Assembly: GCA_964475655.1 (NCBI GenBank)
Contig: CAYYXE010000002.1
Span: 1-63,778, forward strand
Reading direction: 5' to 3'
DNA: 63,778 bases
From: an uncultured Candidatus Saccharibacteria bacterium
GTDB lineage: Bacteria > Patescibacteriota > Minisyncoccia > Phycocordibacterales > UBA9973
How positions within the stretch are numbered: the first letter of the stretch is position 1; each line of letters starts with the position of its first letter. A program made the position numbers and the translations under genes. Under the pieces are notes generated by a model that saw only the letters and a program-made list of their open reading frames with translations, did not search any database and had not been told where the DNA came from. Below, one piece after another: positions 7,498 to 52,348 of this stretch.

Positions 7498-7578
7498 ATA
7501 CTTATTTTTTATTTGAATGAATTTGTTTTAAATTACCATATAATGCAATTAAGTCAAATCGATGCTATAGTAGTCTCT

Positions 7579-8376
7579 ATGCGAGCAAAGAAATCCCTCG
7601 GGCAACATTTCTTAAAGAGCGAGAAGGCGCTGCGCCAGATCATTGAAGCGGGCACTTTGTCTATGAAAGACACCGTGCTCGAGATCGGTCCCGGCACGGG
7701 CGTCCTTACCAACCAACTTTTGCAAAAGGCAGGCAAAGTTGTCGCAGTCGAGAAAGACCGCGAGCTCATCCATTATCTGACACAGACCTACACGAGTGAC
7801 CTGGAGACCAAAAAGCTCACCATCCTCGACCAAGACATCCTCGCCTTTGATCCGACTACCATGCAGTGGTACGGCAAGAGCTATAAACTCATCGCCAACA
7901 TCCCGTACTACATTACTGGCGCAATTATCGAACAATTTTTGAGCGCCACCTTCCAACCTTCTACTATGGTGCTGCTTATACAGAAAGAAGTCGCGGAGCG
8001 TATCATTGCGCGAGACCGCAAGGAAAGTGTGCTCTCTATCGCAGTCAAAGCATACGGCACACCGCGAATCATCGACAAGGTCCCCAAGGGCGCCTTTGCA
8101 CCCGCTCCTAAGGTCGACTCGGCAATCATAGTTATCGAGGGCATTTCACGCGCATGTTTCACAGACTGTGACGAGGCGGCATTTTTTGCGCTCCTGAAGT
8201 TTATCTTTGGGCGCAAGCGCAAGCAGATAGGGGGAAGTTTGGCAGAATACTTAAATAATAAACCTCGTGCACAAGAGATACTCGCAACACTCTCGATCGA
8301 TCCCAAGACTCGCCCCGAAGATCTCGCGCTCGACTCCTGGAAATCTCTTGCGCAGCACATAGATGGTGTACAATGA
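7579..8376 (+). CDS. rsmA: 16S rRNA (adenine1518/1519-N6)-dimethyltransferase
   Basis: KKSLGQHFL, SAM motif EIGPGTG and NIPYYIT. Start chosen at MRAKKSLGQ. Confidence 0.9.
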   Translation: MRAKKSLGQHFLKSEKALRQIIEAGTLSMKDTVLEIGPGTGVLTNQLLQKAGKVVAVEKDRELIHYLTQTYTSDLETKKLTILDQDILAFDPTTMQWYGKSYKLIANIPYYITGAIIEQFLSATFQPSTMVLLIQKEVAERIIARDRKESVLSIAVKAYGTPRIIDKVPKGAFAPAPKVDSAIIVIEGISRACFTDCDEAAFFALLKFIFGRKRKQIGGSLAEYLNNKPRAQEILATLSIDPKTRPEDLALDSWKSLAQHIDGVQ

Positions 8377-8380
8377 GTGC

Positions 8381-8749
8381 ATGAAGCATCATAGATATAT
8401 TGCGATCGCGCTCCTTCTCGTCATCATCGCAGTGCCTGTCATCGCGTTTGCACAATTTGGCAGTACATCTCTTTCGTTTATGAGATCAATCGGAGGTCGA
8501 GTGGCATCGGTCGGTCCAACTGCAGCCATACAATACTGCTTGGGTATCGGTCCTATCACTATCCAGCCATTTATATCTGGTGCCCAGCAGGAGCCGTATT
8601 TTATTAGAGTTGCGGCCAATGGCACTCCTCGCGTCGGGGGATATATTCTCGGGCTCTACAATCCGGTACCAGATGGAGGAAGCTGCTACAATGCAAGCGG
8701 TGTACCCGTCCCCGCATATGAGATCACCCTCTACGGCGTGTCTCGCTAA
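8381..8749 (+). CDS. small secreted protein, hypothetical (first gene of the T4SS-like operon)
   Basis: N-terminal signal-like segment IAIALLLVIIAVPVIAFA. No family recognised. Confidence 0.5.
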   Translation: MKHHRYIAIALLLVIIAVPVIAFAQFGSTSLSFMRSIGGRVASVGPTAAIQYCLGIGPITIQPFISGAQQEPYFIRVAANGTPRVGGYILGLYNPVPDGGSCYNASGVPVPAYEITLYGVSR

Positions 8750-8754
8750 TACCT

Positions 8755-9633
8755 ATGCCAGAGCACTCCATGCGTCCGAGCAAACAGTTCATCATACGAG
8801 GATCCCTCACTGTCGGCATCGTTGCTGTTATCCTTGTTGTACAAACTACCTGGTTCAAAAACCTCTTTCATAAGAAGGCAAACGCTCCTGCGCCGGTCAC
8901 TGTAGGGGACATCATTACCCAAGACTCCAACCAAAACGGCATTGCTGACTGGGAAGAAAAGCTCTGGGGGCTTGATCCGACTGTGCTCTATACCAAAGGC
9001 GTATCCAACAAGCAGATTATTGAAAATAAAAAAAAGGCGCTCGGCGTGCCTGACTCTGCAAGTGAGCCCGCCAATGAGACCGACCGTCTTGCCCGAGAGC
9101 TCTTTAGTCTCACGGCAGCGCTTGGCCAGTCAGAGGCAGTCGATGATGCAACCCTCAAGCAAATCGCCGCAAAGATAGGCGCATCAGTCAATGTAAATAC
9201 GACGATCACCCAGTACACGACACGCGACCTCACCATTGTCCCGACCACGGTACAGAGTCTACAGAAGTACCAACAGACTATGACCTCTCTCCTTGCTCGT
9301 CAAAAGCCCGTGGGAGATATTGATGTCTTTGCCACTGCACTCCAAACTGAAGATCCTGCTACCGTAGCGTCTCTTGCCGCATCAGTTGCCTCATATGCAT
9401 CGCTGGCCAAAGATCTCCGCGCAGTACCGGTCCCGATCGGCGTCGCCAAGTATCACCTGGACATCATCAATAGCTTTGCGGGCATCACGACATCGTTTGA
9501 ATACATGCAAGAGCTTGCCGACAACTCAGTCGTGGCACTCGTCGGCGTCGCCACCTACAAAACATACAGCGCACGACTCGACACCGCAGTCGTCGGCATG
9601 AGAGCATATCTCTCGCGATACGGTATACTCTAA
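8755..9633 (+). CDS. membrane-anchored hypothetical protein
   Basis: 292 aa with an N-terminal TM (LTVGIVAVILVV). Only a 5-nt gap to the upstream ORF. Confidence 0.5.
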   Translation: MPEHSMRPSKQFIIRGSLTVGIVAVILVVQTTWFKNLFHKKANAPAPVTVGDIITQDSNQNGIADWEEKLWGLDPTVLYTKGVSNKQIIENKKKALGVPDSASEPANETDRLARELFSLTAALGQSEAVDDATLKQIAAKIGASVNVNTTITQYTTRDLTIVPTTVQSLQKYQQTMTSLLARQKPVGDIDVFATALQTEDPATVASLAASVASYASLAKDLRAVPVPIGVAKYHLDIINSFAGITTSFEYMQELADNSVVALVGVATYKTYSARLDTAVVGMRAYLSRYGIL

Positions 9634-9644
9634 GTATCTCTAGT

Positions 9645-12113
9645 ATGAAACGATATATCATTGTTCTATCATTGATTTTCCTTGCACTTCCTCAAGCTGC
9701 ATTTGCAGTACCTGTACAATGTCCGGCAGGTGCGATCACGACAGACGGCATCTTTGATCCCAATGCGCAGGTGCCGTCAGGATACGGATCGGGAAGCAAT
9801 AGCTTTGGCGGACTCAACTTTAGTGGAGTCGGCGGTGCGCTCGCAGGCTGTCTCAATGTGGGAGGATTTGCAACAAGTAGCCTCAAAGATCTCTTTGGAT
9901 CTGGTGCCAAAAGCGCAGCGAACCGTGTTGCACCTAACGGTACGACAGACAAGGCGAGCTGCATTGCAGAGTACAATACCGATAAGGCATCTGAGGCAGC
10001 CGCATGCGCAACTCGCGCGACACAAATACTCAAAGATGGCTGTATGCAAAGTGTAAACACTAAGTACGAAGGCTTGTTGGCAAATTGCGACACTGCATTT
10101 ACTGACACAAGTGGGTTTGAAAGTAGCAGTGTGGGTATTTCGACAGGCGGACAAAGTGTCCCTGTTGCAGACAGCGCAGTCAATACCCAGCTCTCCAAAA
10201 TAAACGAACGCGAGCAGTGCCTCAACGGCGTTGCCAACGCTGCAGCAAAGTCGGTCTTGCAGAGCTTCACCACCAAAACAATCAATTGGGCAAAGACAGG
10301 GTTTGACGGCAATCCCTTTTATGTGCGCGACATTGATTCGTATATGAAATCGATCCGGGACGAAAAGGTGTCGTCCTTTCTCCAAGATGTGCCCAATGCC
10401 GACCCAGTGTTTGGTATTGCGCTTCGATCTATCATCACGGAGCAAGTAACGGGATTTACCGATGGAAGACTTACACAGATCATGAATACTCCTGAGGCAC
10501 GGGAATATGAAGCATTTCAAAACGACTTCACCCAAGGTGGATGGAACGCATTTCTCAATCCACGCAACAATGCGGTAGGTGCATACTTTAATGCCGTCGA
10601 TCGGCTCAGCAGCATTGTCGATACTGCAAAGCAAAATGTGAGGGACGAACTCGTGCAGGGAAATGGATTTTTGAGTATGAAAAAGTGTGCTGAATACGCA
10701 ACAAACCGTGTTGCACCTAACGGTACGACAGACAAGGCGAGCTGCATTGCAGAGTACAATACCGATAAGGCATCTGAGGCAGCCGCATGCGCAACTCGCG
10801 CGACACAAATACTCAAAGATGGCTGTATGCAAAGTGTAAACACTAAGTACGAAGGCTTGTTGGCAAATTGCGACACTGCATTTACTGACACAAGTGGGTT
10901 TGAAAGTACCGGAAACAGCAACCGATGCCTCAGGTATGAGACGGTGACACCCGGTGCACTCATTTCAAACCAAGTATCAGCAGTGCTCAACTCACCAATC
11001 AACCAATCAATCGCTGCCGACTCGATCAACGAAGTCGTAGGCGGGTTCTTTGATAGCATGCTCAACAATCTCTTTAGTAAGGGACTTGGATCGCTCGGGA
11101 GAAGTAGGGGGTCGACCCTTAGTGGTCAAAACGTTGTATACGACAGCAGCGGCAACGTCCTGCCCGGGGTAGCCGAGGCGCTTTCGATGGAGGGAGTGCA
11201 GAGTAGTTGTATCGACAATGGCTACGCGGGTGACTTTGACATCAGTCGACCACAGCAACTGCGCGCCATCATTCAGACCCAGAAGGATTACCTCAATCGC
11301 ATCAATGACAATGCACTTGCTGCAGCAGACATCGTCCCCGCACTTGGTAAACTCGATTACTGCATTCCCGGTCCCAACCCCACCTGGAAGGATGGCCTCG
11401 ATGAAAACTTCCAGACATTTTTGAGTTCGTTTAGAGTCGACAGCAAGACACTAAACGGCCCGCTTGGACTCTTTTCATCAACATCAGTCGCATTTGTTGC
11501 AGATGCGTCGCTCTTTGATAAAGCAAAGAGTCAGTACCACCAGATCAGAAATTTCACCTTCAGTGGCCAAGGAAGTGGGTCATTCCTTGGCATCGGAGGC
11601 ACCGGTCAGACACTTGATAGTCTCGATGCTTTCCTCAAAAACGGATACAACACACTCCTAAGTCTATACACTGCGACCTACAATCCAGCATCCATCGCAA
11701 CTGCATTTGGTGCAGTGGTGCCAGTATCAGACAGAGCAACAGCGATCGCAAGCATCAACGAAAGTTTTAAAGAAACGAAAAGCCTCTCTGCATATGGACA
11801 GATCATTCCCCAATACCAACTCTTTTATAGTCAATCAGATGCACAAAGTAGGTCAAACATTGCCGAACTTGAATCAATCAACGCCGAAGTGCTCCAAATC
11901 GTTGCAACTGCGAAGGCTCGTTATCTCAGAGATCATCCCGAAGTTGCTTCTGCAATCAACCCAAAGACCGGAAATCGTTGCATTGATGATGCATATATAG
12001 TCAATACCACTCCGATCACGGGAGCCGCCCGCCAGCGCACCAACTCCATCTTGCCCGCAACGGACATTCCTTACTCAAAGGCATCAAACGATTATTTCTA
12101 CAATACCCTATAA
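9645..12113 (+). CDS. large secreted Cys-containing protein with an internal perfect duplication, hypothetical
   Basis: 822 aa with signal peptide LIFLALPQAAFA. A 68-aa segment NRVAPNGTTDKASCIAEY...TSGFES occurs twice. Confidence 0.7.
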   Translation: MKRYIIVLSLIFLALPQAAFAVPVQCPAGAITTDGIFDPNAQVPSGYGSGSNSFGGLNFSGVGGALAGCLNVGGFATSSLKDLFGSGAKSAANRVAPNGTTDKASCIAEYNTDKASEAAACATRATQILKDGCMQSVNTKYEGLLANCDTAFTDTSGFESSSVGISTGGQSVPVADSAVNTQLSKINEREQCLNGVANAAAKSVLQSFTTKTINWAKTGFDGNPFYVRDIDSYMKSIRDEKVSSFLQDVPNADPVFGIALRSIITEQVTGFTDGRLTQIMNTPEAREYEAFQNDFTQGGWNAFLNPRNNAVGAYFNAVDRLSSIVDTAKQNVRDELVQGNGFLSMKKCAEYATNRVAPNGTTDKASCIAEYNTDKASEAAACATRATQILKDGCMQSVNTKYEGLLANCDTAFTDTSGFESTGNSNRCLRYETVTPGALISNQVSAVLNSPINQSIAADSINEVVGGFFDSMLNNLFSKGLGSLGRSRGSTLSGQNVVYDSSGNVLPGVAEALSMEGVQSSCIDNGYAGDFDISRPQQLRAIIQTQKDYLNRINDNALAAADIVPALGKLDYCIPGPNPTWKDGLDENFQTFLSSFRVDSKTLNGPLGLFSSTSVAFVADASLFDKAKSQYHQIRNFTFSGQGSGSFLGIGGTGQTLDSLDAFLKNGYNTLLSLYTATYNPASIATAFGAVVPVSDRATAIASINESFKETKSLSAYGQIIPQYQLFYSQSDAQSRSNIAELESINAEVLQIVATAKARYLRDHPEVASAINPKTGNRCIDDAYIVNTTPITGAARQRTNSILPATDIPYSKASNDYFYNTL
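9921..10125 (+). repeat. copy 1 of a perfect 205-bp direct repeat
   Basis: Identical to 10704..10908. The offset is 783 nt (261 codons), so the duplication is in frame. Confidence 0.95.
10704..10908 (+). repeat. copy 2 of a perfect 205-bp direct repeat
   Basis: Identical to 9921..10125. Confidence 0.95.
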
Positions 12114-12120
12114 TACCTAC

Positions 12121-13017
12121 ATGAAACGCTTCCTCACCATCCTTATCCTCATCCTCAGTATTGTCGCGGTCTTTCTCGGCATAAGCTGGCTCGTCTCTCG
12201 CAAAAGTGCCCAAAAAAGTGGCAATACTCCTCAGACATTCAGAGAGTTTATAACAGGGGACACCGTCCCAGGATCAGCCACCTCTACTGATGATTCACTC
12301 AGCGGAGCATTCACAACCCCTCCCGATGGCACACTGGATGATGGCACCTCCTTGATAAAGCCGGGACCAGATGGTGTGTATGGTACACAGGATGATATAT
12401 CGACCCCTCCTTCACCAGCCGGAGCGCCCACAGATACCCGAATTAGTATATTTACCAACACTGGAGCACTCAATCCGGGAGATACCACCCCCCCATCGAC
12501 CAGTAGTGGCGTCGCCCCTGCAAACCAACCCGGGATAAAAACCCCAATACCTGTTCCTGTGCGGGATACCTTTGCTGGAGCGACCGTAGTCGGCGGCAAC
12601 GACTGCACTGATGCCGACCAAAACATTGTTTTCACCCCTCAGGAACTTGCCCAACTCCGCGCACTCCAAAACCGCTTTTATGCAGTAGCGACCACGCTCC
12701 ATACTGACGCAGATGTTGCAGCCGAATTTGCCAACTACAACACCTTTGACCTCAAGGCACGCAAGATCAACGAACTTGCAAATTACTGCACAAACCACAT
12801 TGCACAAGTCGTTGCGGCAAATCCAATCTACGGTACAACAGTTGCCACTCCATACTGGGGCGCTCCTCTCAAAGATAGTTTGTACGGATTCTTTAGCAAG
12901 GCTGCTACCCCTCAAGGCGGTATCACCCCTCCTGACTACGGCGGCCCCTTTGATATCAACGACCTCACTTCAGGGCTTCGCAACGTCGAACGCGCGCTGC
13001 GCCTCAATCTTTGGTAA
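12121..13017 (+). CDS. membrane-anchored Pro/Thr-rich protein, hypothetical
   Basis: 298 aa with an N-terminal TM (LTILILILSIVAVFLGISWLV) and a low-complexity P/T/G-rich linker. Confidence 0.55.
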   Translation: MKRFLTILILILSIVAVFLGISWLVSRKSAQKSGNTPQTFREFITGDTVPGSATSTDDSLSGAFTTPPDGTLDDGTSLIKPGPDGVYGTQDDISTPPSPAGAPTDTRISIFTNTGALNPGDTTPPSTSSGVAPANQPGIKTPIPVPVRDTFAGATVVGGNDCTDADQNIVFTPQELAQLRALQNRFYAVATTLHTDADVAAEFANYNTFDLKARKINELANYCTNHIAQVVAANPIYGTTVATPYWGAPLKDSLYGFFSKAATPQGGITPPDYGGPFDINDLTSGLRNVERALRLNLW

Positions 13018-13074
13018 CGCGAACCCAATTACCCGCATACTGTGCGGGTAATTCGTGTATCTGCGTGATACACT

Positions 13075-16000
13075 GTGTCTGTGCACACGCATCTATTTCG
13101 ACGTATGTTTTCTCTCTCCATCTTGAAAAAACTTTCAAAGGCGACACTACTGTCGGTTGTATTGCTCGTGATATTTTTGGGAAGCATGCGTCCGGCGTTT
13201 GCAGCACCTGATACTTCCTTAAAACAATATCGTGATTTGTTTGGCGCATATCTTGGCAATGATCCAGTCATTAAGGGTACCCCGGATGCAATATCACGGA
13301 CACAAAGTGGAGTATTTTATATACGAACCGATAGGGTAAGTAACGGGGTAACAAAGCTTTTGTTTGGGGCAAATCTTATGTTTCCAGGACTCAATGATGG
13401 TGCTCAATATGAAAATACTGAAAATCAAATATGGGACTATGTAGGCAACAACGACGGTGATGCAAATGACAGCAGTGGCACAACATCTTCTGCTGATGAC
13501 AGCTTTATACTTCGAACGTACCAGATCGACACAAACGGACAAAAAACCAATATTTCATACGAAACTGACATTTACAAGATAATGCAGACAGGTCCCAATG
13601 TCCCGCTCAATCAAATGCCTTTATTATCTGCACCTCAAACAGGGCAAGCAAAATTTTATAAATGGGGATATTTCAAAAACGCCAATGGTGCGGCACAGCG
13701 AGTGTATTTAGTTAACCAAAAAATTACTATTCCCGTTTCGTATACTACTGCGGTTCCGTATGGTGCAACTATGGGAGCAGATCTCTGGTACTGTGGCGGC
13801 CGAGGAGCAGGTGTAGGTAATGGGGACTTTTCAAGAGGAGATGATGAAATAACGGGATGGGAAAACAACGTTGAATTCTTTGATGGTGACCCTGAGCTCT
13901 GCGATGGTACTGCGTATTGGAAAATAGGACCGAGTATTACATTCACGCTCCCCGCAAGTGCCCAAGCTGCGATACAAGAAAATGAGGCACAGGCCGCAGC
14001 ACAAGCACAACAGATTGCAAATGTTGGATCTGCTAGGTCAGGACAAGAAGGTGCAGGTGACGTTCTTCCGCAGTGTAGTATGAGCAATGGCACGTTTGGC
14101 TCGGGTTCATTTGTGGGCTGTATTGCATACCTTGTGTACTATCTGGTGTACTGGCCGGTGGCATGGTTTGCCGGTATTTTGGGTAAACTCTTTGACTTCT
14201 TCCTCGGCTATTCGCTCAGCGATGCGTCGTACCGCGCTCAGTTTGCAGTGCGCGGCTGGCAGATCGTGCGCGATCTTTCCAACATCTTCTTTATTATCAT
14301 CCTTGTCTATACTGGACTTATGGCCGTATTTGGGGGTGGTCCAAATATGAAAAAGGTGGTGCCACAACTTATCCTCAATGCGCTCCTCATCAACTTTTCT
14401 CTCTTTGGAACCCGTGTCATCATCGACATCTCCAACGTCGTCGCGCGTGTCTTTTATAAGTCAGTCGAGGTGTGCGATGGCAAATGCAACAGCGACATGT
14501 CCAACAAAAAGGAGGGGATCGCAGGCTACACCCCACTCTCCGAAAAGATCGTATCTGCATTCAATCCTCAAAAAATATTTAGTACCGATACACTTAGTGC
14601 TGCAAGCGCCCTCCCTGACAATGGCACAAGCCAGCAAGGCAGTGTGAATGCGCGAGTAGCAGATCGCAGTACCAGTGAATATGCGGGGTATTTCATTGTT
14701 GTGAGCCTCATCGCCGCATTTATCCTTTTTGCAATAGCGATGATGTTTTGGAAGACGGCGTTCTTCTTTGTCGGGCGCGTGATCGGACTCTATCTCTGCA
14801 TGATCTTTGCGCCATTTGCAGTACTCACCAAGGGCGGCATGCCGCTCGTGAGCAGTATCGGCGAACTCTCCTGGAAAAAGTGGTCCGAAGATCTTGTCAA
14901 CTACGCAACTCTTGCGCCTATCTTTGTATTCTTTCTCTATGTCATTTACTCATTCCTTGAGACTGACTTTATCAAAGTCTATGCAGACAAAGTCGGCAAT
15001 AGCTTCTTTGAGACCGTGGTGTACATCGCCATCCCGATGATCATCGTGTGGTACATGATCAGACAGGGAGTAAAGATTGCCGAAAAGTATGCAGGTGATG
15101 CGGGTAAGTTGGTATCGGGATATATCAACAAAGCGACTGGGTTTGTCGGGGGAGCGGCGCTTGGGGTTGCGACAGGGGGAGCGGCATTTTTGGGAAGAAA
15201 CGCAGTCGGACGAGGTCTTCGACTGCTTGGTAATAGCGGCAAAAGAACTGATGCTGCTGGCAATACAACAACCCGCGCAGAACGTTGGGCGGCAAATTCA
15301 AATAATAGCTGGCTTTCTCGACAATGGAACAACACCTATAGTAAGACTCAGACCGGTTCATGGGATGCGCGAAATACAAAGTTGGGCGGCCTTGTAAGTA
15401 GTGCAGGAGGTTCACTCGGAGGCCAGATGGGCGTCAAGTTTTCTGACAAACTATCTGGATCTATATATGGGCTGGGCAAAGACTCTGGAAAAGGTGGTGT
15501 GGTTGAAGTAAACAAAAAACTTGCAAAGCGTAAGCAAGAAATTTTAGAGAAAAAAGTTGACATGAGCCACCTCAGTGATGACGAAGCAAAAAATGCTGCG
15601 ACAAAATACAAGAGTGATCAGATCAAAAAATATGGCGAAGCTCATTGGGAAGAGCATATCGATAAGGTGGATACACTCAAAGCCCCCAAAGATGCAATGG
15701 ATGCTGCAAAAACAGCTCTTGATGCAGCAATAAAAGATCTTGATGACAAAACAAAAGCTGGTACCGCTACTACTGCGGATAGACTTGCACGCGATAGGGC
15801 ACAGAAGGACTTTGACAACAAAAAACAAGCGTTTGATGCAGCAAAAATTGGTATTATCGATAATATAAAACAAGGCAAAGCTGACGCTATCAAAGATAAA
15901 GCTTTGGAATTTGCACAAAAAGAAAAGGAGAAGGAGCTTGCTGCGTACAAGGTCAAAGATGCAGCCTCATTTGGCAACATGATGCGCGCTGAGTACGTAA

Positions 16001-16602
16001 ATGGCCTTCAGAATGCTTCATTTATGAAGAAACTAATAGAGGGTATCGATGTGACAAATCCAGTTTCTATGATCGGAGCTGCTGCTGGAGTAGCAGTATC
16101 TGCACTTATTCCTCCACTTACCCCGTTAGTTGTAACGGCAATGACTGCTGCTATCGCAAAAGAGCTTGGTGATGAAATTGTATATGCAGCAACAGGAAGC
16201 AATGGTAAAGCTGTTAAAGCGATAAATAAAAAAGCAAAATCAAAAGCGGGAACTGGAAATGTGCTTATTGACATGGAAGCGCGTCTAGAAACTCTAAAAG
16301 CAGTAGTGACGAATGCTATCAAGAAAGACTTTGATAAAGTTACAGAAGATGAAATCCTTGATTACACTGCAGATCTTCAGGGTGAAGTAGATGAACTCAA
16401 TGATAAAATCAAGAGTAAAACCGGTACTCCTGACGAGCTCAAACAGGCACGAAGACATCGTGCACGTAAACTTGATGAACTTGATAAACTCAAAAACATT
16501 CAAGATAAGATTGCTCGCCAGCAAAAAGATATCGACGACCACAAACAAAAAGAAAAGGAGAAGGAAGAAAATAAAAAGAAAAAGGATGAAGAGAAAAAAT
16601 AA
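13075..16602 (+). CDS. VirB6/TrbL/TcpH-like polytopic membrane protein with a large N-terminal ectodomain and a Lys/Glu/Asp-rich coiled-coil tail
   Basis: 1175 aa (ATG alternative at 13105). Signal peptide, a ~330-aa extracellular region, then a block of about 6-8 hydrophobic helices. The C-terminal ~450 aa are charged coiled coil ending KEKEKEENKKKKDEEKK. Confidence 0.55.
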   Translation: MSVHTHLFRRMFSLSILKKLSKATLLSVVLLVIFLGSMRPAFAAPDTSLKQYRDLFGAYLGNDPVIKGTPDAISRTQSGVFYIRTDRVSNGVTKLLFGANLMFPGLNDGAQYENTENQIWDYVGNNDGDANDSSGTTSSADDSFILRTYQIDTNGQKTNISYETDIYKIMQTGPNVPLNQMPLLSAPQTGQAKFYKWGYFKNANGAAQRVYLVNQKITIPVSYTTAVPYGATMGADLWYCGGRGAGVGNGDFSRGDDEITGWENNVEFFDGDPELCDGTAYWKIGPSITFTLPASAQAAIQENEAQAAAQAQQIANVGSARSGQEGAGDVLPQCSMSNGTFGSGSFVGCIAYLVYYLVYWPVAWFAGILGKLFDFFLGYSLSDASYRAQFAVRGWQIVRDLSNIFFIIILVYTGLMAVFGGGPNMKKVVPQLILNALLINFSLFGTRVIIDISNVVARVFYKSVEVCDGKCNSDMSNKKEGIAGYTPLSEKIVSAFNPQKIFSTDTLSAASALPDNGTSQQGSVNARVADRSTSEYAGYFIVVSLIAAFILFAIAMMFWKTAFFFVGRVIGLYLCMIFAPFAVLTKGGMPLVSSIGELSWKKWSEDLVNYATLAPIFVFFLYVIYSFLETDFIKVYADKVGNSFFETVVYIAIPMIIVWYMIRQGVKIAEKYAGDAGKLVSGYINKATGFVGGAALGVATGGAAFLGRNAVGRGLRLLGNSGKRTDAAGNTTTRAERWAANSNNSWLSRQWNNTYSKTQTGSWDARNTKLGGLVSSAGGSLGGQMGVKFSDKLSGSIYGLGKDSGKGGVVEVNKKLAKRKQEILEKKVDMSHLSDDEAKNAATKYKSDQIKKYGEAHWEEHIDKVDTLKAPKDAMDAAKTALDAAIKDLDDKTKAGTATTADRLARDRAQKDFDNKKQAFDAAKIGIIDNIKQGKADAIKDKALEFAQKEKEKELAAYKVKDAASFGNMMRAEYVNGLQNASFMKKLIEGIDVTNPVSMIGAAAGVAVSALIPPLTPLVVTAMTAAIAKELGDEIVYAATGSNGKAVKAINKKAKSKAGTGNVLIDMEARLETLKAVVTNAIKKDFDKVTEDEILDYTADLQGEVDELNDKIKSKTGTPDELKQARRHRARKLDELDKLKNIQDKIARQQKDIDDHKQKEKEKEENKKKKDEEKK

Positions 16603-16605
16603 TCT

Positions 16606-17214
16606 ATGGACACAACTACTACAAAAATCGAAGAAGATACTTTCCAAGAAGCACTTGATGCTATGCCTGAGGAAGTACGCGACTACATGTGGGGTCCAGC
16701 ATTTGATTATGCGATAGACGTCGCAGAGAAGGTCATCACTCTCAGTTCGCAAGAAAAAGAATACGTTCGTGATATTGCGTACGATTTGCTCATGCGACTT
16801 ATTGATATGGACAGCGCGGCAAATATTCTTTTGGAGAAGAAAGTTGCACCAGAAAAAGTGAGTAAAATTATGTACTATATTGATCAAGAAATTCTCGAGT
16901 CAGCAAGAAACCTAGTTAACTATTATGGAGACATCAATGAAATTGCTCGAAGTGACCAAGGTAAGTCTGCACAGAGCAATGAATCCGAACAGCCTCCACA
17001 AACCGTTCCGGATACCTTCTCTCGTCTCTCCCAATCCTTCACTACCCCTTCCGCAATCATTCCCAAAAAGAGCGTGTACACCGATCTTCCTTCTGCATCT
17101 GCCTCAGTATCGAACACGCCGCCTGGCTCTCGGCCGCTCTCTGAAGCAATACCGAAGTCTGATACTAGCAAACCCGCTGTCGATCCATACCGACTTGATC
17201 CCAACGAGAAGTAA
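16606..17214 (+). CDS. hypothetical protein
   Basis: 202 aa with an acidic N-terminal half and a Ser/Pro-rich C-terminal half. 3-nt gap to the upstream ORF. Confidence 0.5.
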   Translation: MDTTTTKIEEDTFQEALDAMPEEVRDYMWGPAFDYAIDVAEKVITLSSQEKEYVRDIAYDLLMRLIDMDSAANILLEKKVAPEKVSKIMYYIDQEILESARNLVNYYGDINEIARSDQGKSAQSNESEQPPQTVPDTFSRLSQSFTTPSAIIPKKSVYTDLPSASASVSNTPPGSRPLSEAIPKSDTSKPAVDPYRLDPNEK

Positions 17215-17243
17215 TTTATATCTTGATAGGGTACAATAGATGC

Positions 17244-17645
17244 ATGCAGTTTAAGGTACCGCAATTTATCGACATCGAAGACAAAGTCTTTGGGCCGTTT
17301 ACGTTTAAACAATTTCTCTACCTTGCGGGTGGGGCAGGGCTTTTGTATCTTTCATTCAAATTGCTACCGCTCATCATTGCACTCATCATAGGACCTGCGC
17401 TTGGCGGACTTGGTCTTGCGCTTGCATTCTTTAAGTACAACGATAAGCCGTTTGTCAATGTGCTCCAGTCCTTCATCCGTTACTACACGCACTCCCGTCT
17501 CTATCTGTGGCACAAGCAGGATCCCAAAGCACCCAAGAAATCCGTCCCCGAAGCAGCTGCATCAAGCGCGCGTGGTACACTGACAGAGAGTAAGCTCAAG
17601 ACCCTCTCATGGAGTCTTGATGTCATCGACCCCAACAAACAATAG
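17244..17645 (+). CDS. PrgI/TcpE-family small membrane protein (VirB3-like role)
   Basis: MQFKVPQFIDIEDKVFGPFTFKQFLYL followed by two TM helices, the characteristic PrgI-family N-terminus. Lies directly upstream of the VirB4 genes. Confidence 0.65.
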   Translation: MQFKVPQFIDIEDKVFGPFTFKQFLYLAGGAGLLYLSFKLLPLIIALIIGPALGGLGLALAFFKYNDKPFVNVLQSFIRYYTHSRLYLWHKQDPKAPKKSVPEAAASSARGTLTESKLKTLSWSLDVIDPNKQ

Positions 17646-17647
17646 CT

Positions 17648-18283
17648 ATGGCAACCCTTGGCACACCCGCCCAACAATTTGTTCCGATCCAAGAAGTCAG
17701 AGACGGCATCATGGTCATGAAAGACGGCACGCTCGCGATGGCGGCACTGGTTTCTTCGATCAATCTGTCACTGAAGAGCTACGACGAGCAGCGCGCGACA
17801 CTCATGCAGTTTCAAAATTTCCTCAATACGCTTGATTTTCCGATCCAAATCGTTATTCAAAGTCGCCGCTATGATATCCGGCCATATATACTCACTCTCG
17901 AAAACCGCCTCAAGCAGCAAACAGAGCCCTTGCTCCAAGTACAGACCCGCGAATACATTCAATTTATCCAAAAGTTTACCCAAGATGTCAGTATCATGCG
18001 CAAAAGCTTCTTTGTGGTCGTACCGTACATCCCTCCCATCTTGAGCCAAAAGCAGGGCTTGGGCAAAGTACTTTCGTTTTTGAACAAAAAGCCTGCAGCC
18101 ACACAAAGCGTCACCGACTTTGAAGAACAGCGCACCCAACTCGAGGAGCGCATGAGTGTCGTAGTACAAGGCCTTACGCGCGTAGGCCTCCGGGTAGGGC
18201 AGCTTGGTACCGAAGAAGTGATTGAGCTTTTGTACAAAACATTCAACCCAGGTGACACCATGACACACGCAAATGCAGTGTAG
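17648..18283 (+). CDS. stand-alone VirB4/TcpF N-terminal-like module
   Basis: FVPIQEVRDGIMVMKDGTLAM...SINLSLKSYDEQRATLMQFQNFLNTLDFPIQIVIQS resembles the N-terminus of Gram-positive VirB4-type ATPases (IPy..m..DGI...DINY.L..e...if..w..fLN). Confidence 0.45.
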   Translation: MATLGTPAQQFVPIQEVRDGIMVMKDGTLAMAALVSSINLSLKSYDEQRATLMQFQNFLNTLDFPIQIVIQSRRYDIRPYILTLENRLKQQTEPLLQVQTREYIQFIQKFTQDVSIMRKSFFVVVPYIPPILSQKQGLGKVLSFLNKKPAATQSVTDFEEQRTQLEERMSVVVQGLTRVGLRVGQLGTEEVIELLYKTFNPGDTMTHANAV

Positions 18284-18301
18284 TGCTGTATACTATAGAG
18301 A

Positions 18302-20110
18302 ATGGGTCTCTTTGGATCAAAGCAAAAAACAGAAGAAAAGACGCTTCCAGTCCTTCCCTCTGAAGTACATGAGTGGGCAACTATGGAGCTCGCGGACAAG
18401 ATCGCGCCCTCTGCGATCGAGATCACTCCCAAATCACTTCGTATCGGCGACAAGATCGTGCGCACCTTCTTTGTGATCTCATACCCCCGCTACCTCACCG
18501 ACAACTGGTTTACCCCCATCATCAATCTCGACAAAATCTTTGATGTCGCGATCTATATCAACCCGATCGAAACCGCCGAACTCCTCAAGCACTTCCAAAA
18601 GAAGATTGCGGAGGTTGAAAGCCAGATCATTGTCCGCCAACAGAAGGGACTTGTCCGCGATCCCATGCTCGACACTGCCTTCCAAGATCTCGAGGAGCTC
18701 CGCGACAACCTCACCCAGGCACAAGAAAAGATGTTTGATATCGGCTTTTATATCTCGATCTATGCCGACAGTGACCAAGAGCTCTTCAGGACCGAAAGCG
18801 AGATCAAAAGCATGCTCGAAGGCAAAATGATCTACATCAAACCGACCCTCTTTCAGGAAGAAGATGGGTTTAAGACGGTCGTCCCCCTTGGTACTGACAA
18901 GCTCAGCATCACTCAAAAGCTCAACTCCGAACCCATCTCGAGCATGTTCCCCTTTGTATCATTTGATCTCACCGGAGACGAGGGGATACTCTATGGGGTC
19001 AACCGCCACAACTCATCCCTCGTTATCTTTGATCGCTTTTCGCTCGAAAACTACAACTCCATCATCTTTGCAAAGTCCGGTGCGGGTAAGTCGTACGCGA
19101 CCAAACTTGAGATCATTCGCACGCTCATGTTTGATACTGACGTGATCGTCATCGACCCAGAGCGCGAGTACGAGTACTTGGCAGAGGCAGTAGGGGGGCG
19201 ATATTTCAATATTTCACTCTCATCTGACAACCACATCAACCCGTTTGACCTGCCGATCCCACGCGTCGACGAATCCCCTGCGGATGTGCTGCGCAGCAAC
19301 ATCATCAATCTCGTAGGGCTCTTTCGTATTATGCTTGGCGGCCTCACCCCCGAAGAAGACTCGATTATTGATCGCGCGATCACCGAGACCTACTCACTCA
19401 AAGACATCACTGCAGAGAGCGACTTCACCTCAATCGAGCCGCCACTTCTCTCAGACTTTGAAATGGTGCTCGGCGGCATGGAGGGGACTGAGAGTATCTT
19501 GCAGCGCCTGACCAAATACACACACGGCTCGTGGGCAAACTTCATCAACCAGCCGACAAACGTCGACATCAACAAAAAGTTTATTGTGTTCTCGGTACGC
19601 GACATGGAAGATGACCTCAAACCTGCTGCGATGTACATCGTCACACATTTCATTTGGAATGCCGTGCGCAAAGAGCTCAAAAAGCGTCTGCTCGTCGTGG
19701 ATGAGGCATGGTGGATGATGAAAAGTGACGACACTGCAAGTTTCCTGTATTCAATTGCAAAACGAGGCCGTAAGTACTACCTCGGTCTCTGTACAATCAC
19801 CCAAGACGTGGGAGACTTTATGAAGAGCCCGTACGGTGTCCCGATCGTCACCAACTCCTCGATCCAGCTCCTGCTCAAGCAATCCCCAAGCACCATCGAT
19901 GTGCTCCAAAAGACGTTCAACCTCACCGATGAAGAAAAGTTTCTCCTGCTCGAAAGCGGCGTAGGGGAAGGGATTTTCTTTGCAGGACTCAAGCATGTCG
20001 CGATCAAGATCATTGCCTCATACACCGAAGATCAGATCATCACCAGTGACCCATCCCAAGTCATCTCGATCCGCAATGCAAAGAAGGAGTTTAGTGAACA
20101 GCGTACGTAG
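18302..20110 (+). CDS. VirB4/TraE/TcpF-family type IV secretion ATPase
   Basis: 602 aa with Walker A FAKSGAGKSYATK, Walker B LLVVDEAWWMM (DEAW) and a conserved upstream segment RTFFVISYPRYL. Confidence 0.85.
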   Translation: MGLFGSKQKTEEKTLPVLPSEVHEWATMELADKIAPSAIEITPKSLRIGDKIVRTFFVISYPRYLTDNWFTPIINLDKIFDVAIYINPIETAELLKHFQKKIAEVESQIIVRQQKGLVRDPMLDTAFQDLEELRDNLTQAQEKMFDIGFYISIYADSDQELFRTESEIKSMLEGKMIYIKPTLFQEEDGFKTVVPLGTDKLSITQKLNSEPISSMFPFVSFDLTGDEGILYGVNRHNSSLVIFDRFSLENYNSIIFAKSGAGKSYATKLEIIRTLMFDTDVIVIDPEREYEYLAEAVGGRYFNISLSSDNHINPFDLPIPRVDESPADVLRSNIINLVGLFRIMLGGLTPEEDSIIDRAITETYSLKDITAESDFTSIEPPLLSDFEMVLGGMEGTESILQRLTKYTHGSWANFINQPTNVDINKKFIVFSVRDMEDDLKPAAMYIVTHFIWNAVRKELKKRLLVVDEAWWMMKSDDTASFLYSIAKRGRKYYLGLCTITQDVGDFMKSPYGVPIVTNSSIQLLLKQSPSTIDVLQKTFNLTDEEKFLLLESGVGEGIFFAGLKHVAIKIIASYTEDQIITSDPSQVISIRNAKKEFSEQRT

Positions 20111-20165
20111 GTGCTGTTGCGCTTGGCCACGACCTTGTGCCATCTATGCGTGATATACTTTTGCT

Positions 20166-21095
20166 ATGAAATATCTGCTCGCGCTCATTGGCACATTTGT
20201 CTTTACTGCAATGGTTGCGTCAGCGCAGACCGGAAGCGTCGACCTTGCACTCCAATCAATCCCGCTCAATCCGCAGCCTGGAGAAACTGTCACGATCACC
20301 GCATCAAGTTATGGCACCGATCTTTCACAGACAACACTTTCGTGGAACTATAATGGATCTTCTGTTGGACAAGGTGTTGGCAAAACATCTATCCAAGTAG
20401 TGGCCCCAAAGGCGGGCACTACCGGAATCATTACTGTCACTACGATTGACGGCGGGACCGCAAGTACCATACTGCGCCCAGGAACCATGGACTTGCTGTG
20501 GGAGGCAGCAGATGCCTATACACCGCCGTTTTATAAAGGGAAGGCACTTCTGCCTCTTGGGGGATTGATTCGTCTGACTGCTGTATCCTCTACAAATACT
20601 CCTCGTGGCATCAGCTTTGATTGGGAGCGCAATACTTCAGCGATGCAGGAAGCGTCTGGGTTTGGCAAATCAAGTACGACATTTCGGTACAACCCACTCA
20701 ATGCATCAGAACAAGTGTCTGTTACTGCTACCTCTGGCAACTTTCAAGCAACTGCCTCGCTTCGTCTAGGCGCGTATGTCCCCCTTGCTCTCGCATATCG
20801 CAACAACGACGGCTTTATCGACTATGCGCACGGCTATACTACAACAATACCTATCACTACTACAGGTGCAGTGCTTCACTTCGAACCATACTACTTCTCA
20901 GTACCTTCAACCATCGCCAAAGATCTCTCAGTAGGTATGGTGGTAAACAAGCAACCAATACTCACTGCAGTACCCAATGAAATAGCGCTCTCTCGTCCAG
21001 AAAACGGGGTACAAAGTACGCTCGAACTCGCCATTACTACCGTCGCCTACAGCTTGCAACATCTGACCAAAACCTTTACGCTTCTATTCAACTAG
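20166..21095 (+). CDS. secreted beta-rich protein, hypothetical
   Basis: 309 aa with signal peptide LIGTFVFTAMVASA and an Ig-like-looking repetitive beta composition. Confidence 0.5.
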   Translation: MKYLLALIGTFVFTAMVASAQTGSVDLALQSIPLNPQPGETVTITASSYGTDLSQTTLSWNYNGSSVGQGVGKTSIQVVAPKAGTTGIITVTTIDGGTASTILRPGTMDLLWEAADAYTPPFYKGKALLPLGGLIRLTAVSSTNTPRGISFDWERNTSAMQEASGFGKSSTTFRYNPLNASEQVSVTATSGNFQATASLRLGAYVPLALAYRNNDGFIDYAHGYTTTIPITTTGAVLHFEPYYFSVPSTIAKDLSVGMVVNKQPILTAVPNEIALSRPENGVQSTLELAITTVAYSLQHLTKTFTLLFN

Positions 21096-21096
21096 T

Positions 21097-22584
21097 ATGA
21101 AATATTTTATTGCAGCAATATCCATTCTCTGTATCTTGTGTTTTCCTTTGACAACAAGTGCGCAGAGAGGTACTAGCGTCGATCCACTTCCCACCGCAAC
21201 GGTATCCGACTTTGCAGTCAAACCAGTATCTGATCGGGAGGTATCCATTAGTGGAAAAATCACGACAACCAACATCGAGATTAATCTCTTACGGGTTACC
21301 TTTCTGTGGTCGCAGACAAAAAACGGAGATACTAATGATCCTGGAGACCCTCAACAAATCTACACAGGCGCAGGAGGACAAGCTGCAATTGCAGTGGATG
21401 GGGCGTACAGTTTAAAACTCAGCGGCCTTACACCCAATACAAAGTATTATTTCAAACAGATCGTTACTTTTACGAACGGTAATCCACTTGACACCCAGAG
21501 TGGCACTTTCAATACTGACAAGGGCTACATTATACCGGGCTCTGTAGGGGAGCAGCTCGACTTCAATTCCCGAAGCTACCACTTGCTCGCACCACTCCCC
21601 GGACTTTCAGTACTCATGGATCCAGATCTCTGTGCCGAAAAGAAGGCAAAGGGCGAGGTGCCCGCAAATGCAATTTGTGACGTCAACGGCTTTCTCGACT
21701 TTGCATTTAAGCTCATGATCGGCCTTGCTGCAGTAATTTTGGTAATCCGCCTCATGATTGAGGGGTACAAGATCCTTACCACTGACGTGCCGTTCATTGC
21801 AGCCAGCGCAAAAGGTAATTTCTTTAGTGCACTCCTCGGACTCCTCCTTGCTCTCTCGGCATACCTCATTCTCAATACGATCAATCCGAAGTTGGTGAAT
21901 AATAAGATAACTATTGATAGTGTGAATGTTGGGGTTGAGGAATTTAAATTCTCAGATGTTAACCAAGCATATACTGTAAGAAACGGTGTTCGAGTAAAAA
22001 TTAATTCAATAAAGATGAAGGAGGTACTTCCATATGCAGAAAAAGCAGAAACTGCATCTGGAGTTAAAAAAGAAAATATTCTTGCAATTCTTGCTATCGA
22101 AACAAATCTTGGTACAAAACAAGGTGCATGTTATTGGGACGATACTGGTGTGATGCCACCAGAACCTGGCCGGAACGCAGATAGAGATGACAAGACTATC
22201 TATAAAGGAATTATTTCTGATCTCAAAATAGGTCTTCGGGACCATAAGGTTTCTTGTGCACTTTCTAATAGTACATGGGGTGGTGGAATGGGACCTTCAC
22301 AGCATATTCCTACCTATTGGAAACAATTTGCTCCGAAGATAACCGCCATAACAGGAAGACCTGCCGACCCGTGGGATCTACAAGATGCAGTTTATGCACT
22401 GGCGTTTCATATGGCAGCAGACGGAGCGGTAAACGATCCGGAAAATGCTGCATGCAAGTACTACAGTGGACATGCTTGTGGAACACGGTCGCGCGATTTT
22501 GGTAAATATGGAAATCTCGATTACAGAGATAAATTTAGAAATGCTGTTGTATCTGTAAAAGCAGAGCTCACAAAAATTAAATAA
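21097..22584 (+). CDS. tri-modular protein: secreted beta domain + T4SS-pilin-like two-TM segment + MltB/SLT_2-like lytic transglycosylase
   Basis: Signal peptide and an FN3-like N-terminal domain. The central segment LAPLPGL...CDVNGFLDFAFKLMIGLAAVILVI...FFSALLGLLLALSAYLILNTINPKL is pilin-like. The C-terminus has ILAIETNLG (catalytic Glu context) and GPSQHIPTYW (G.xQF.P.tW-like). Confidence 0.55.
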   Translation: MKYFIAAISILCILCFPLTTSAQRGTSVDPLPTATVSDFAVKPVSDREVSISGKITTTNIEINLLRVTFLWSQTKNGDTNDPGDPQQIYTGAGGQAAIAVDGAYSLKLSGLTPNTKYYFKQIVTFTNGNPLDTQSGTFNTDKGYIIPGSVGEQLDFNSRSYHLLAPLPGLSVLMDPDLCAEKKAKGEVPANAICDVNGFLDFAFKLMIGLAAVILVIRLMIEGYKILTTDVPFIAASAKGNFFSALLGLLLALSAYLILNTINPKLVNNKITIDSVNVGVEEFKFSDVNQAYTVRNGVRVKINSIKMKEVLPYAEKAETASGVKKENILAILAIETNLGTKQGACYWDDTGVMPPEPGRNADRDDKTIYKGIISDLKIGLRDHKVSCALSNSTWGGGMGPSQHIPTYWKQFAPKITAITGRPADPWDLQDAVYALAFHMAADGAVNDPENAACKYYSGHACGTRSRDFGKYGNLDYRDKFRNAVVSVKAELTKIK

Positions 22585-22605
22585 TATCTGTAGTACAATA
22601 CATCC

Positions 22606-23898
22606 ATGCGAAAGGTTCTCATTATTGTACTTATCGTCATCATTGCAGCTGCCGGCGGCTGGTACTGGTATGCCCGGTCTCACCAAACTGCGCCGGGCGT
22701 GCCGGCAATCACTGACTTTAGTGCATTCTTCCCTGTTGGGGAAACGGGCGATCCTACACTTCTTGATGGATTGCTTCAGGGGACACCACCTGATCCGACC
22801 AACACACCCACGACCACTCCTTCACCCTTTCGGCAGCTCAGTCCTCACCCTGTCGCAGGCTTCGTATCCTATATGAAGCCGCTTGTGACGACTGTTGTAG
22901 ATCCGACCAAACCCCAGCCCAAGGCTGGTCAGCCTCGGGCTGACAAAGCAAAACCAGTCACGACTACAACACAAGTGCACACGATTCGGTATATATCTCG
23001 CGCGACTGGGTATGTGTATGAGATCACCGATGGCGACGTACCGCTGCAAATCTCCAATGTCTACATCCCCAATATATACGAGGCACTTTTTGGGGAAGGG
23101 ATGAACACGGCACTCCTTCGATTTCTCAGACCAGACCAGCGCACGATTGCAACCTACAGCGTCCCCATTCCACCCCCCAACACCGACGGTACTCGCACAC
23201 AACGCGAGGGCACGTACTTTCCCGATACTATCCTCCAGACTGTACTGTCTCCCGACAACAAACAAGTCGCCTATCTTACAACTGGCACCAGTGGGGCAAC
23301 GATTACTCTCTCATCACTTACCAACACCAAAAAGACTGCACTTATCACGACACCGTTTCGCGAATGGCTTCTCTCGTGGCCGAGCACAAAGAGTCTCTAT
23401 GTCCAGACCAAGCCCAGCGCGCAAGTGCTTGGATTTCTCTACCGCATCGATACAGGCGAAAAGAAGCTTCGCCGCGTCCTCGGAGATATCAATGGCCTTA
23501 CTACCTCGGTGAGCCCGTCTGGCACCTATGTGCTGTATTCGCAGCATAGCGATGGAGGATTTGTGACACGCCTGCTCAACACCAAGACGGGCACTACACG
23601 ATCTCTCACACTCGCCATCCTTCCAGAGAAATGCACCTGGCTTGCAAACGAAGACCTCATCTGTGCAGGGAACACCTCTGTGGCAGAGCGCGCGGAGTAC
23701 CCCGATGCGTGGTACCAGGGGAGCGTGGCATTTAGCGACCAGCTCTACCGCATCGCGACCGCATCCCTTGTATACGAGACACTCTATGACAACAGCGCAA
23801 AGTCGTTTGATATGACCAATCTGCAGGTGGATGAAGCAACTCGCATCGTCTACTTCATCGACAAATCGACTGGCCTTCTGTGGCAGATGTCATACTAA
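22606..23898 (+). CDS. membrane-anchored protein with a TolB-like beta-propeller character, hypothetical
   Basis: 430 aa with an N-terminal TM, a Pro/Thr linker, then repeated 'S.DG..v.y' style blades (SPDNKQVAYL, SPSGTYVLYS). Confidence 0.45.
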   Translation: MRKVLIIVLIVIIAAAGGWYWYARSHQTAPGVPAITDFSAFFPVGETGDPTLLDGLLQGTPPDPTNTPTTTPSPFRQLSPHPVAGFVSYMKPLVTTVVDPTKPQPKAGQPRADKAKPVTTTTQVHTIRYISRATGYVYEITDGDVPLQISNVYIPNIYEALFGEGMNTALLRFLRPDQRTIATYSVPIPPPNTDGTRTQREGTYFPDTILQTVLSPDNKQVAYLTTGTSGATITLSSLTNTKKTALITTPFREWLLSWPSTKSLYVQTKPSAQVLGFLYRIDTGEKKLRRVLGDINGLTTSVSPSGTYVLYSQHSDGGFVTRLLNTKTGTTRSLTLAILPEKCTWLANEDLICAGNTSVAERAEYPDAWYQGSVAFSDQLYRIATASLVYETLYDNSAKSFDMTNLQVDEATRIVYFIDKSTGLLWQMSY

Positions 23899-23907: not shown

Positions 23908-23936
23908 AAAAAATCGCACTTCTCTGTGCGATTTTT
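23908..23936. terminator. bidirectional intrinsic terminator between convergent genes
   Basis: Stem aatcgcac / gtgcgatt, with an A-run on the left and a T-run on the right. Confidence 0.65.
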
Positions 23937-24651: not shown

Positions 24652-24687
24652 GGTGTGTATTGTACTTGTTGAATAAAAAATCGCAAT

Positions 24688-25258: not shown

Positions 25259-25272
25259 GAGGGGAGTATAGC

Positions 25273-25407: not shown

Positions 25408-25466
25408 ATGTGGGCACACTATACACAAAAGTAGGGGTTTTATCAAGTGACTCCTCCCAATCTTCA

Positions 25467-25692: not shown

Positions 25693-25734
25693 GAGAATCG
25701 AACACCCTTGCTCATATAGATACGATATCTGCTA

Positions 25735-52336: not shown

Positions 52337-52348
52337 ATATATTTCTAT

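Follow-up and report, generated by a model that had tools for sequence, protein, structure and literature searches.

An operon beside dnaA in a Paceibacteria genome very likely specifies a type IV secretion system of the Patescibacteria type

What might a secretion apparatus of the conjugative kind be doing next to dnaA, with neither a relaxase nor a coupling protein encoded beside it? The question is raised by an operon at positions 8363-23898 of contig CAYYXE010000002.1 (assembly GCA_964475655.1), which was analysed over its whole length of 63,778 nt (63.8 kb; referred to here as the window). The operon was first noticed in a sequence-only reading of the window as 12 closely packed plus-strand open reading frames (ORFs), and all 12 (g1 to g12) were found where that reading had placed them, intact and separated by intergenic gaps of 1-57 nt. 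We consider it very likely that the operon is a type IV secretion system (T4SS) of the Patescibacteria type. Since this system, which ultra-small Patescibacteria have beside their origin of replication, was published in 2023-2025, its recognition here is a correct rediscovery; the locus contains no new kind of system. Statements about the absence of a relaxase or a coupling protein apply to the contig. Related loci are the best 80 of at least 596 VirB4 relatives in collections holding one genome per species.

The motor of the system is a VirB4 ATPase encoded by g9 (18302-20110, +). The protein matched the NCBIfam model conju_CD1110, which describes VirB4-like conjugal transfer ATPases of the CD1110 family, over model positions 183-733 of 752 (E=1.7e-112, 377 bits, cutoff 325), and it also matched the TraG P-loop domain of Pfam (3.9e-25). 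Its translation carries intact Walker A (SGAGKS) and Walker B (DEAW) motifs. The best 80 relatives in species genomes are 74-95% identical to g9 and all belong to Paceibacteria, Nomurabacteria or Parcubacteria-type metagenome-assembled genomes (MAGs), some of them deposited as Saccharibacteria, whereas the nearest plasmid-borne VirB4s, conjugative ATPases of Firmicutes and Actinobacteria, are 29-35% identical. By proxy only, this difference in identity would place g9 in the Patescibacteria VirB4 clade.

The N-terminal domain of VirB4 has its homologue in a separate polypeptide, the 211-aa TrsD-like product of g8 (17648-18283, +). Among the NCBIfam models it matched VirB4_plasma, the mycoplasma VirB4 model (1.2e-10), positions 1-109 of conju_CD1110 (3.3e-6) and TrsD (3.9e-4), and hhalign matched its family profile to an unsplit VirB4 of 797 aa from a clostridium, over residues 25-200 (E=6e-6). 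A search of PDB sequences with the g8 ortholog profile gave nothing significant. The earlier description of a VirB4 spread over two ORFs is thus borne out by matches to both parts. A frameshifted or otherwise disrupted VirB4 was rejected as an explanation of the split, because the two-gene arrangement (about 210-220 aa followed by about 600-620 aa) is conserved in 79 of the 80 related loci; g8 and g9 are therefore a TrsD/VirB4 pair, as in the Patescibacteria and pGO1-type systems for which a separate TrsD beside VirB4 has been described (PMC12102498). Two genes upstream of the ATPase gene lies g7 (17223-17645, +, with the ATG at 17244 the likelier start), found in 76 related loci. It encodes a membrane protein of the PrgI/VirB3 family, which scored above the cutoff of the Pfam PrgI model (PF12666, E=1e-8, 36 bits, cutoff 27) and gave 0.026 with TcpE, in agreement with its previous labelling as PrgI/TcpE-like.

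The channel component is harder to name. The candidate is g5 (13075-16602, +; 64 related loci), a polytopic membrane protein of 1175 aa consisting of a signal peptide, a beta-rich ectodomain, a bundle of about six transmembrane helices and a Lys/Glu-rich cytoplasmic tail of about 500 aa. Its sequence offered no link to VirB6: there was no match in Pfam or NCBIfam, a PDB sequence search with the ortholog profile gave nothing significant, and the 149 homologs are all unannotated, none with a Pfam domain. Comparison of the g5 family by hhalign with a single CD1112 VirB6 (E=0.075) or with a 15-member CD1112 family profile (E=0.31) was likewise not significant. The call is accordingly drawn from fold and context. 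Residues 11-760 were modelled with AlphaFold2 from a 63-sequence alignment; the model reached a mean predicted local distance difference test score (pLDDT) of 75.8, with 85-95 in the membrane core, and shows the beta-rich ectodomain and the helical membrane bundle. A Foldseek comparison of this model with the PDB placed chains of TrwI/VirB6, from the T4SS of R388, in the first three ranks (probability 0.97-1.0, E 0.012-0.016; the TM-score, taken on the target, was 0.33-0.45), with Legionella DotA in fourth. The target chains, at 260-272 residues, are those of TrwI (342 aa), being too long for TrwJ (229 aa). From its predicted fold, its topology and its position upstream of PrgI, which is the position of VirB6 in a clostridial plasmid, g5 is probably an extended VirB6-like protein, but this is not proven. 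The VirB6/TcpH-like label that the sequence-only reading had given it has weak support from the fold, fits topology and position, and finds no support at the level of sequence.

Pilin and peptidoglycan enzyme, in contrast to the split motor, are joined in one protein. The product of g11 (21097-22584, +) begins with a signal peptide and a variable N-terminal domain, continues with a VirB2-like two-helix pilin hairpin (aa ~199-262), and ends in an SLT_2 lytic transglycosylase domain. The SLT_2 match is above its Pfam cutoff (2.6e-7, 30.6 bits, cutoff 24.3), and the protein keeps an E-T/S motif (ETNLG, within ILAIETNLG) typical of lytic transglycosylases of the MltB type. The T4SS_pilin match of g11 itself (0.006) is below cutoff; among 60 proteins occupying the same slot in relatives, however, T4SS_pilin was matched in 48 (best E=9e-10) and TrbC/VirB2 in four, so that the pilin-hairpin assignment is sound at the family level, and the earlier description of a pilin-like protein with a lytic transglycosylase is confirmed. 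No stand-alone pilin was found in the window, where a hidden Markov model (HMM) of the pilin hairpin built from the orthologs matched g11 alone. In this Paceibacteria lineage the only pilin-like module of the T4SS sits within exported proteins of 300-730 aa.

The enzyme at the end of this protein varies. The slot was compared across the window and loci L002-L079, and the classes given below for single loci were read from the g11 alignment together with the domain counts. In 60 related loci the slot holds NlpC/P60 (11), VanY (9), SLT-type (7), YkuD (5), Amidase_5 (4), M15_4 (3), Amidase_2 (1) or 3D (1) domains. Unlike enzymes are found even where VirB4 is 84-95% identical to that of the window: SLT_2 in L007 and L002, NlpC/P60 in L003 and L005, VanY in L004, Amidase_2 in L008 and 3D in L012. 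Neither the fusion of a pilin to such an enzyme nor the swapping of enzymes was found in the published descriptions of Patescibacteria T4SSs (PMC12102498, PMC10633639). The g11 protein may be only a membrane-anchored VirB1 undergoing modular evolution; alternatively, its enzyme may be matched to the wall of the host. A bolder form of the latter idea, to which we give little weight, is that proteins of the g11 type assemble into, or are presented as, a pilus that pierces walls and is adapted to the wall chemistry of the host of each symbiont, the T4SS being a feeding conduit that breaches the host wall. If this were true, enzyme swapping would record host switching, in a manner comparable to the lysins of phage tails.

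The remaining proteins of the operon appear to face mostly outwards. An N-terminal hydrophobic segment is present in eight of the 12 operon proteins and in none of g6, g8 and g9. The first gene, g1 (8363-8749, +, with the ATG at 8381 the likelier start), encodes a small exported protein of 128 aa with such a segment and no match in Pfam or NCBIfam; it is detectable only in the closest relatives (tblastn hits in 3/80 loci). The conserved first gene of the cluster is g2 (8755-9633, +; 35 loci), whose 292-aa product is anchored by an N-terminal transmembrane segment, is otherwise helical and has a TSP3-like calcium-binding motif (DSNQNGIADWEEKLWGLDP); TSP3_bac was matched in 4 of 28 orthologs (2.2e-8), while PDB sequences searched with the ortholog profile gave nothing significant. 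In the case of g3 (9645-12113, +; 46 loci), an 822-aa exported orphan with a signal peptide and a mostly helical chain, the 60 homologs are all unannotated and without a Pfam domain, an AlphaFold2 model (pLDDT 66.8) had no match in the PDB by Foldseek (best E=1.3), and the ortholog profile found nothing significant among PDB sequences. Some g3 orthologs carry Bact_surface_Ig-like modules or F5/8 type C modules (discoidin-type, lectin-like), which suggests surface exposure and ligand binding and makes g3 a candidate surface or adhesin component. The g3 gene also contains a direct repeat of 222 nt (9904-10125 and 10687-10908, 97% identical) that duplicates a block of 68 aa. An otherwise 100% identical protein in another assembly (P0121, 754 aa) is shorter by exactly these 68 aa, and the duplication is therefore either strain-specific or an assembly artefact. 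The next gene, g4 (12121-13017, +; 10 loci), encodes an N-terminally anchored 298-aa protein with a transmembrane segment and a Pro/Thr-rich linker; it was seen only in close relatives, the slot being variable or empty in other loci.

Seven proteins had been regarded in the sequence-only reading as secreted orphans. Six of them stand; the seventh, g6 (16606-17214, +), is an acidic protein of 202 aa with neither a signal peptide nor a transmembrane segment, and is therefore cytoplasmic. Although g6 evolves too fast for detection by tblastn, its slot between the VirB6-like gene and prgI is occupied in 63 of 63 loci by an ORF of 176-438 aa lacking an N-terminal transmembrane segment, and on this positional evidence we regard g6 as a conserved, fast-evolving partner of the machine. 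Directly after VirB4, in 77 of 80 loci, comes g10 (20166-21095, +), a beta-rich exported protein of 309 aa with a signal peptide. Its orthologs gave weak matches to Ig_3 (4/31) and PKD_3 (1/31), from which it probably consists of tandem Ig-like domains; its ortholog profile gave nothing significant against PDB sequences. The last gene of the cluster, g12 (22606-23898, +; 68 loci), encodes a 430-aa protein anchored by an N-terminal transmembrane segment. It matched an NCBIfam TolB propeller model at 6.7e-4, all 12 PDB hits of its profile were to TolB, albeit weakly (E 0.015-0.22), and PD40 was matched in three orthologs, suggesting that g12 is probably a TolB-like beta-propeller. A PG_binding_1 domain in three orthologs (5.4e-11) hints that this component may bind peptidoglycan.

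The operon has a fixed place in the chromosome. It is bounded on its 5' side by rsmA (ksgA; 7513-8376, +), which encodes the 16S rRNA dimethyltransferase (Pfam RrnaAD, 8e-54), precedes the cluster in 27 of the related loci and overlaps with its 3' end the longest form of g1. The 3' side is bounded by genes identified from their Pfam matches as yidC (23944-24651, -), yidD (24688-25020, -), rnpA (24917-25426, -), dnaA (25798-27153, +) and dnaN (27333-28430, +), core genes of the origin region (23944-28430) whose order is kept in most related loci. Between the convergent g12 and yidC genes, a terminator-like hairpin with an 11-bp stem followed by a T run (23909-23936, +) probably marks the operon end. 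The order rsmA-g2-g3-(g4)-g5-(g6)-PrgI-TrsD-VirB4-g10-(g11)-g12-yidC-yidD-rnpA-dnaA-dnaN recurs wherever the flank suffices, in dozens of Paceibacteria species genomes. The location in the core chromosome between rsmA and yidC/dnaA, proposed from the sequence of the window, is thus found across related genomes when the synteny of the block beside dnaA is followed. The profile HMM searches of Pfam and NCBIfam proposed at the same time placed PrgI, VirB4 and SLT_2 above cutoff, and the proposed structure prediction with Foldseek was carried out for the orphan g3 with the outcome given above. GC skew was rejected as a marker of the origin: it tracks the coding strand, and the plus-strand genes dnaA and dnaN are equally negative. 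Thus oriC is not locatable by skew, and the proximity of the origin rests on the dnaA/dnaN/rnpA neighbourhood and on DnaA-box-like 9-mers at 25735, 25777, 27154, 27224 and 27234, which are grouped in the spacers between rnpA and dnaA and between dnaA and dnaN.

Many of the closest relatives (L001, L002, L006, L012 and others) were deposited as 'uncultured Candidatus Saccharibacteria', while their VirB4s are 79-95% identical to, and their loci fully syntenic with, those of genomes labelled Nomurabacteria or Paceibacterota. These Saccharibacteria labels look like mislabels, and the source of the window is a Paceibacteria/Parcubacteria genome. Elsewhere on the contig, at 38276-40000 (-), 61164-62237 (+) and nearby, are type IV pilus genes, those of a PilB-like T2SSE ATPase and of PilM, and large unannotated proteins are encoded at 40173-41246 and, with a weak match to DUF11, at 41386-43392. 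A gene for a cell-wall hydrolase with LysM and Peptidase_M23 domains (2783-3907, -) lies about 4.5 kb upstream of the operon; domains of this type have been noted in the VirB1-like proteins of Patescibacteria (PMC12102498). A stretch at about 52300-59900 has a G+C content of 0.39-0.41, against about 0.48 elsewhere, and contains orphan ORFs and the only recombinase of the contig, a large serine recombinase (58344-59816) whose 3' end overlaps a tRNA-Ser gene (59804-59892, -); a tRNA-Arg gene is found at 52264-52336. This stretch may be an integrated element, and no convincing att repeats were seen around it (52-60 kb).

How might the operon products work together? The TrsD-like protein and VirB4 would together be the motor on the cytoplasmic side, docking onto PrgI and the VirB6-like channel, and the whole would make up a membrane translocon. 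The Sec-exported g2, g3, g10 (Ig-like), g11 (pilin-hydrolase) and g12 (TolB-like propeller) would build an extracellular part that spans the symbiont's own wall and touches or breaks through that of the host cell, peptidoglycan being opened by the g11 transglycosylase. The assembly would then be a host-contact conduit, or a device for protein export and assembly in two steps (Sec, then T4SS), needed for episymbiotic growth. Among the ORFs of the contig that were scanned with Pfam, there was no relaxase and no coupling protein (VirD4/TcpA); the scan took in nearly every ORF of 150 aa or more, excluding mere overlaps of larger genes on another frame or strand. Their absence had already been claimed from the sequence alone; it holds for the contig, and would be overstated if claimed for the genome. 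Because the cluster has neither gene and most of the co-encoded proteins bear Sec signals, a contact or export device is favoured over a conjugation machine. Taken as a whole, a Patescibacteria-type T4SS that is not a conjugation machine is the best explanation of the locus, and a highly probable one. The earlier view of a Gram-positive-style core, domesticated and non-conjugative, in a small-genome bacterium that depends on a host is thereby supported, and the same conclusion has been published (PMC10633639, PMC12102498, PMC12857230).

A conjugative origin is plain enough in the parts to ask whether the operon is simply an integrative and conjugative element (ICE), cryptic or in decay, whose relaxase, coupling protein and integrase were lost or lie outside the region. 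All recognisable components come from monoderm conjugative systems, and a large serine recombinase is present on the same contig. That recombinase, however, is 34 kb from the operon and in the separate low-GC stretch. No integrase was found near the operon and no direct or att-like repeats flank it, as the sequence-only reading had also noted, and its G+C content (0.44-0.52) is that of its flanks, with no compositional break. None of the genes is disrupted, and the division into TrsD and VirB4 is a conserved rather than a degenerate feature. Above all, the same order between rsmA and yidC/dnaA is retained in dozens of species genomes with VirB4s of 74-95% identity; the conservation of gene order from rsmA to dnaN therefore makes the cluster vertically inherited core chromosome. 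An ordinary ICE is ruled out on these grounds, and a remnant one is extremely improbable. The direction of transport is a closer matter. Of two published hypotheses, one has effectors delivered to the host and the other has DNA or macromolecules of the host brought in. In the second, the T4SS would run inwards, like ComB of H. pylori or the archaeal Ced system, taking up host DNA, nucleotides or macromolecules for a symbiont unable to synthesise them. Import is what both PMC12102498 and PMC11665869 favour, and it fits a lineage that lacks nucleotide biosynthesis, a cluster without relaxase or coupling protein, and the observation that in Southlakia ComEC-dependent competence is dispensable and the T4SS essential. 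It might also draw on the weak matches of g9 to CedB (3.6e-8) and CedD (4.9e-5), but these scores are far below the cutoffs (32.5 bits against 700, and 22 against 600) and reflect generic VirB4 similarity, the best model being the conjugative CD1110. Apart from them, no Ced or ComB component was detected, and the operon has no recognisable DNA-binding or nuclease component. We regard it as unlikely, though a serious contender. Export or contact is preferred to it, with a confidence that stays short of even, and nothing discriminates firmly between the two.

It could also be that no substrate is moved at all, VirB4 powering instead a VirB2-like filament that bears peptidoglycan-hydrolase and Ig-like domains and serves mainly for attachment to the host wall and its local digestion. 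VirB4 does drive pilus biogenesis (PMC12102498), the sole pilin-like module of the operon is the g11 hairpin flanked by extracytoplasmic domains, the C-terminal enzyme class varies among close relatives, and g3 orthologs carry lectin-like and Ig-like modules. Against this, there is no precedent for a polymerising pilin whose hairpin is preceded by about 180 aa and followed by 230 aa, the hairpin may be a mere membrane anchor of a VirB1-like hydrolase, and the operon keeps PrgI and a VirB6-like channel protein, which a translocon would be expected to have. A surface filament or adhesion organelle thus seems improbable, and less credible than import. The contact or export machine that we prefer must itself be set against several points. 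The direction of transport and its substrate are pure inference, and experiments cover no Paceibacteria T4SS; of the Saccharibacteria system it has been said that its function is 'completely unknown' (PMC11665869). The VirB6 assignment of g5 comes only from gene position and from a fold resemblance that is weak (E about 0.01, with a TM-score of 0.33-0.45 on the target). A VirB8-like (NTF2-fold) protein, such as PrgL, TraM or TcpC, was not matched by any operon protein in sequence-level searches of Pfam, NCBIfam and PDB profiles, and five conserved proteins (g2, g3, g6, g10 and g12) have no firm assignment. Finally, the genome, of which a 64-kb contig was examined, may carry a VirD4-like gene at another place; in most Patescibacteria genomes VirD4-like genes lie far from virB4 (PMC12102498).

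Few machines have been shown to be indispensable to episymbiotic life in this vast and mostly uncultured bacterial radiation, and the Patescibacteria T4SS is one of them. The present locus is a clear case from Paceibacteria, its layout of 12 genes being fully conserved. For structural and genetic work it offers a list of conserved, lineage-specific accessory genes (g2, g3, g6, g10, g12), fold-level support for an extended VirB6, and a pilin-hydrolase fusion with interchangeable enzyme domains.

The closest counterparts of the operon are the systems surveyed in 3,035 Patescibacteria genomes by Quinonero-Coronel et al. (2025, PMC12102498), who described a monophyletic VirB4 clade nested in MPF_FATA with the partners TrsD, PrgI, VirB6 and VirB2-like proteins, relaxases being almost absent. 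A 2025 review counts these systems as established newcomers to the T4SS superfamily (PMC12857230). The window shares with them a VirB4 with an adjacent TrsD homologue, PrgI/VirB3, a probable VirB6-like protein and a VirB2-like (PF18895/PF04956) module. The Paceibacteria T4SSs of that survey have a neighbourhood of dnaA, dnaN, rnpA, ksgA and rpmH, and the operon resembles them in having no relaxase nearby and in its location beside dnaA, dnaN, rnpA and ksgA. Nothing essential differs; the survey is silent on a pilin module within a larger protein ending in a peptidoglycan enzyme, and leaves the conserved accessory genes unannotated.

The experimental reference is the SEML1_0006-0019 cluster of Southlakia epibionticum, which is origin-proximal, next to dnaA and essential for epibiotic growth, resembles the T4SSs that Gram-positive bacteria use for conjugation and has essential VirB2-like pilins but no recognisable coupling protein or relaxase (Wang et al. 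2023, PMC10633639). Like this cluster in strain ML1, the operon is chromosomal and close to the origin and has no recognisable coupling protein or relaxase, and the order in Southlakia is collinear: a VirB6-like protein of about 1000 aa, PrgI, a protein of about 290 aa, VirB4 (612 aa), a large protein, a cell-wall hydrolase and an exported Ig-like (PEGA) protein. In Southlakia, six genes encode PF18895 pilins that stand alone, and a lysozyme-like protein is encoded separately, as is an NTF2-like (VirB8-like) protein, whereas the window has one pilin-hydrolase fusion, no stand-alone pilin and no detected VirB8-like protein; essentiality has been shown for Southlakia only. The T4SSs of Bordetella (Ptl) and Brucella (VirB), which translocate effectors without a coupling protein, are comparable in that no coupling protein is encoded in the cluster and that Sec signal peptides are present on the proteins that are candidates for cargo or accessory roles, a feature suggestive of export in two steps. 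Those, however, belong to the MPF_T systems of diderms and have an outer-membrane core complex, and a coupling protein may be encoded elsewhere in the present genome.

The descent of the machine is best seen beside the MPF_FATA systems of the CD1110/CTn2 type, exemplified by the C. botulinum plasmid pCDC3875. The window VirB4 passes the CD1110 cutoff, and its gene series VirB6-PrgI-(x)-VirB4-(x)-SLT hydrolase follows the arrangement of the plasmid core (VirD4-x-VirB6-PrgI-x-VirB4-x-SLT); the separate TrsD-like N-domain recalls the TrsD/TrsE subclass of pGO1 (PMC12102498). In contrast to MPF_FATA systems, the contig has no VirD4 (CD1115) or relaxase, its VirB4 reaches only 29-35% identity, its VirB6-like protein is four times larger with no detectable sequence relation, a VirB2-like pilin module absent from the Gram-positive members is present, and the cluster is fixed in the core chromosome. 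On this comparison of genes and their order, we conclude that the operon derives from monoderm conjugation machinery (MPF_FATA, CD1110/CTn2-like) whose DNA-processing module was lost: it looks like the clostridial module minus its coupling protein and plus a set of extracellular proteins.

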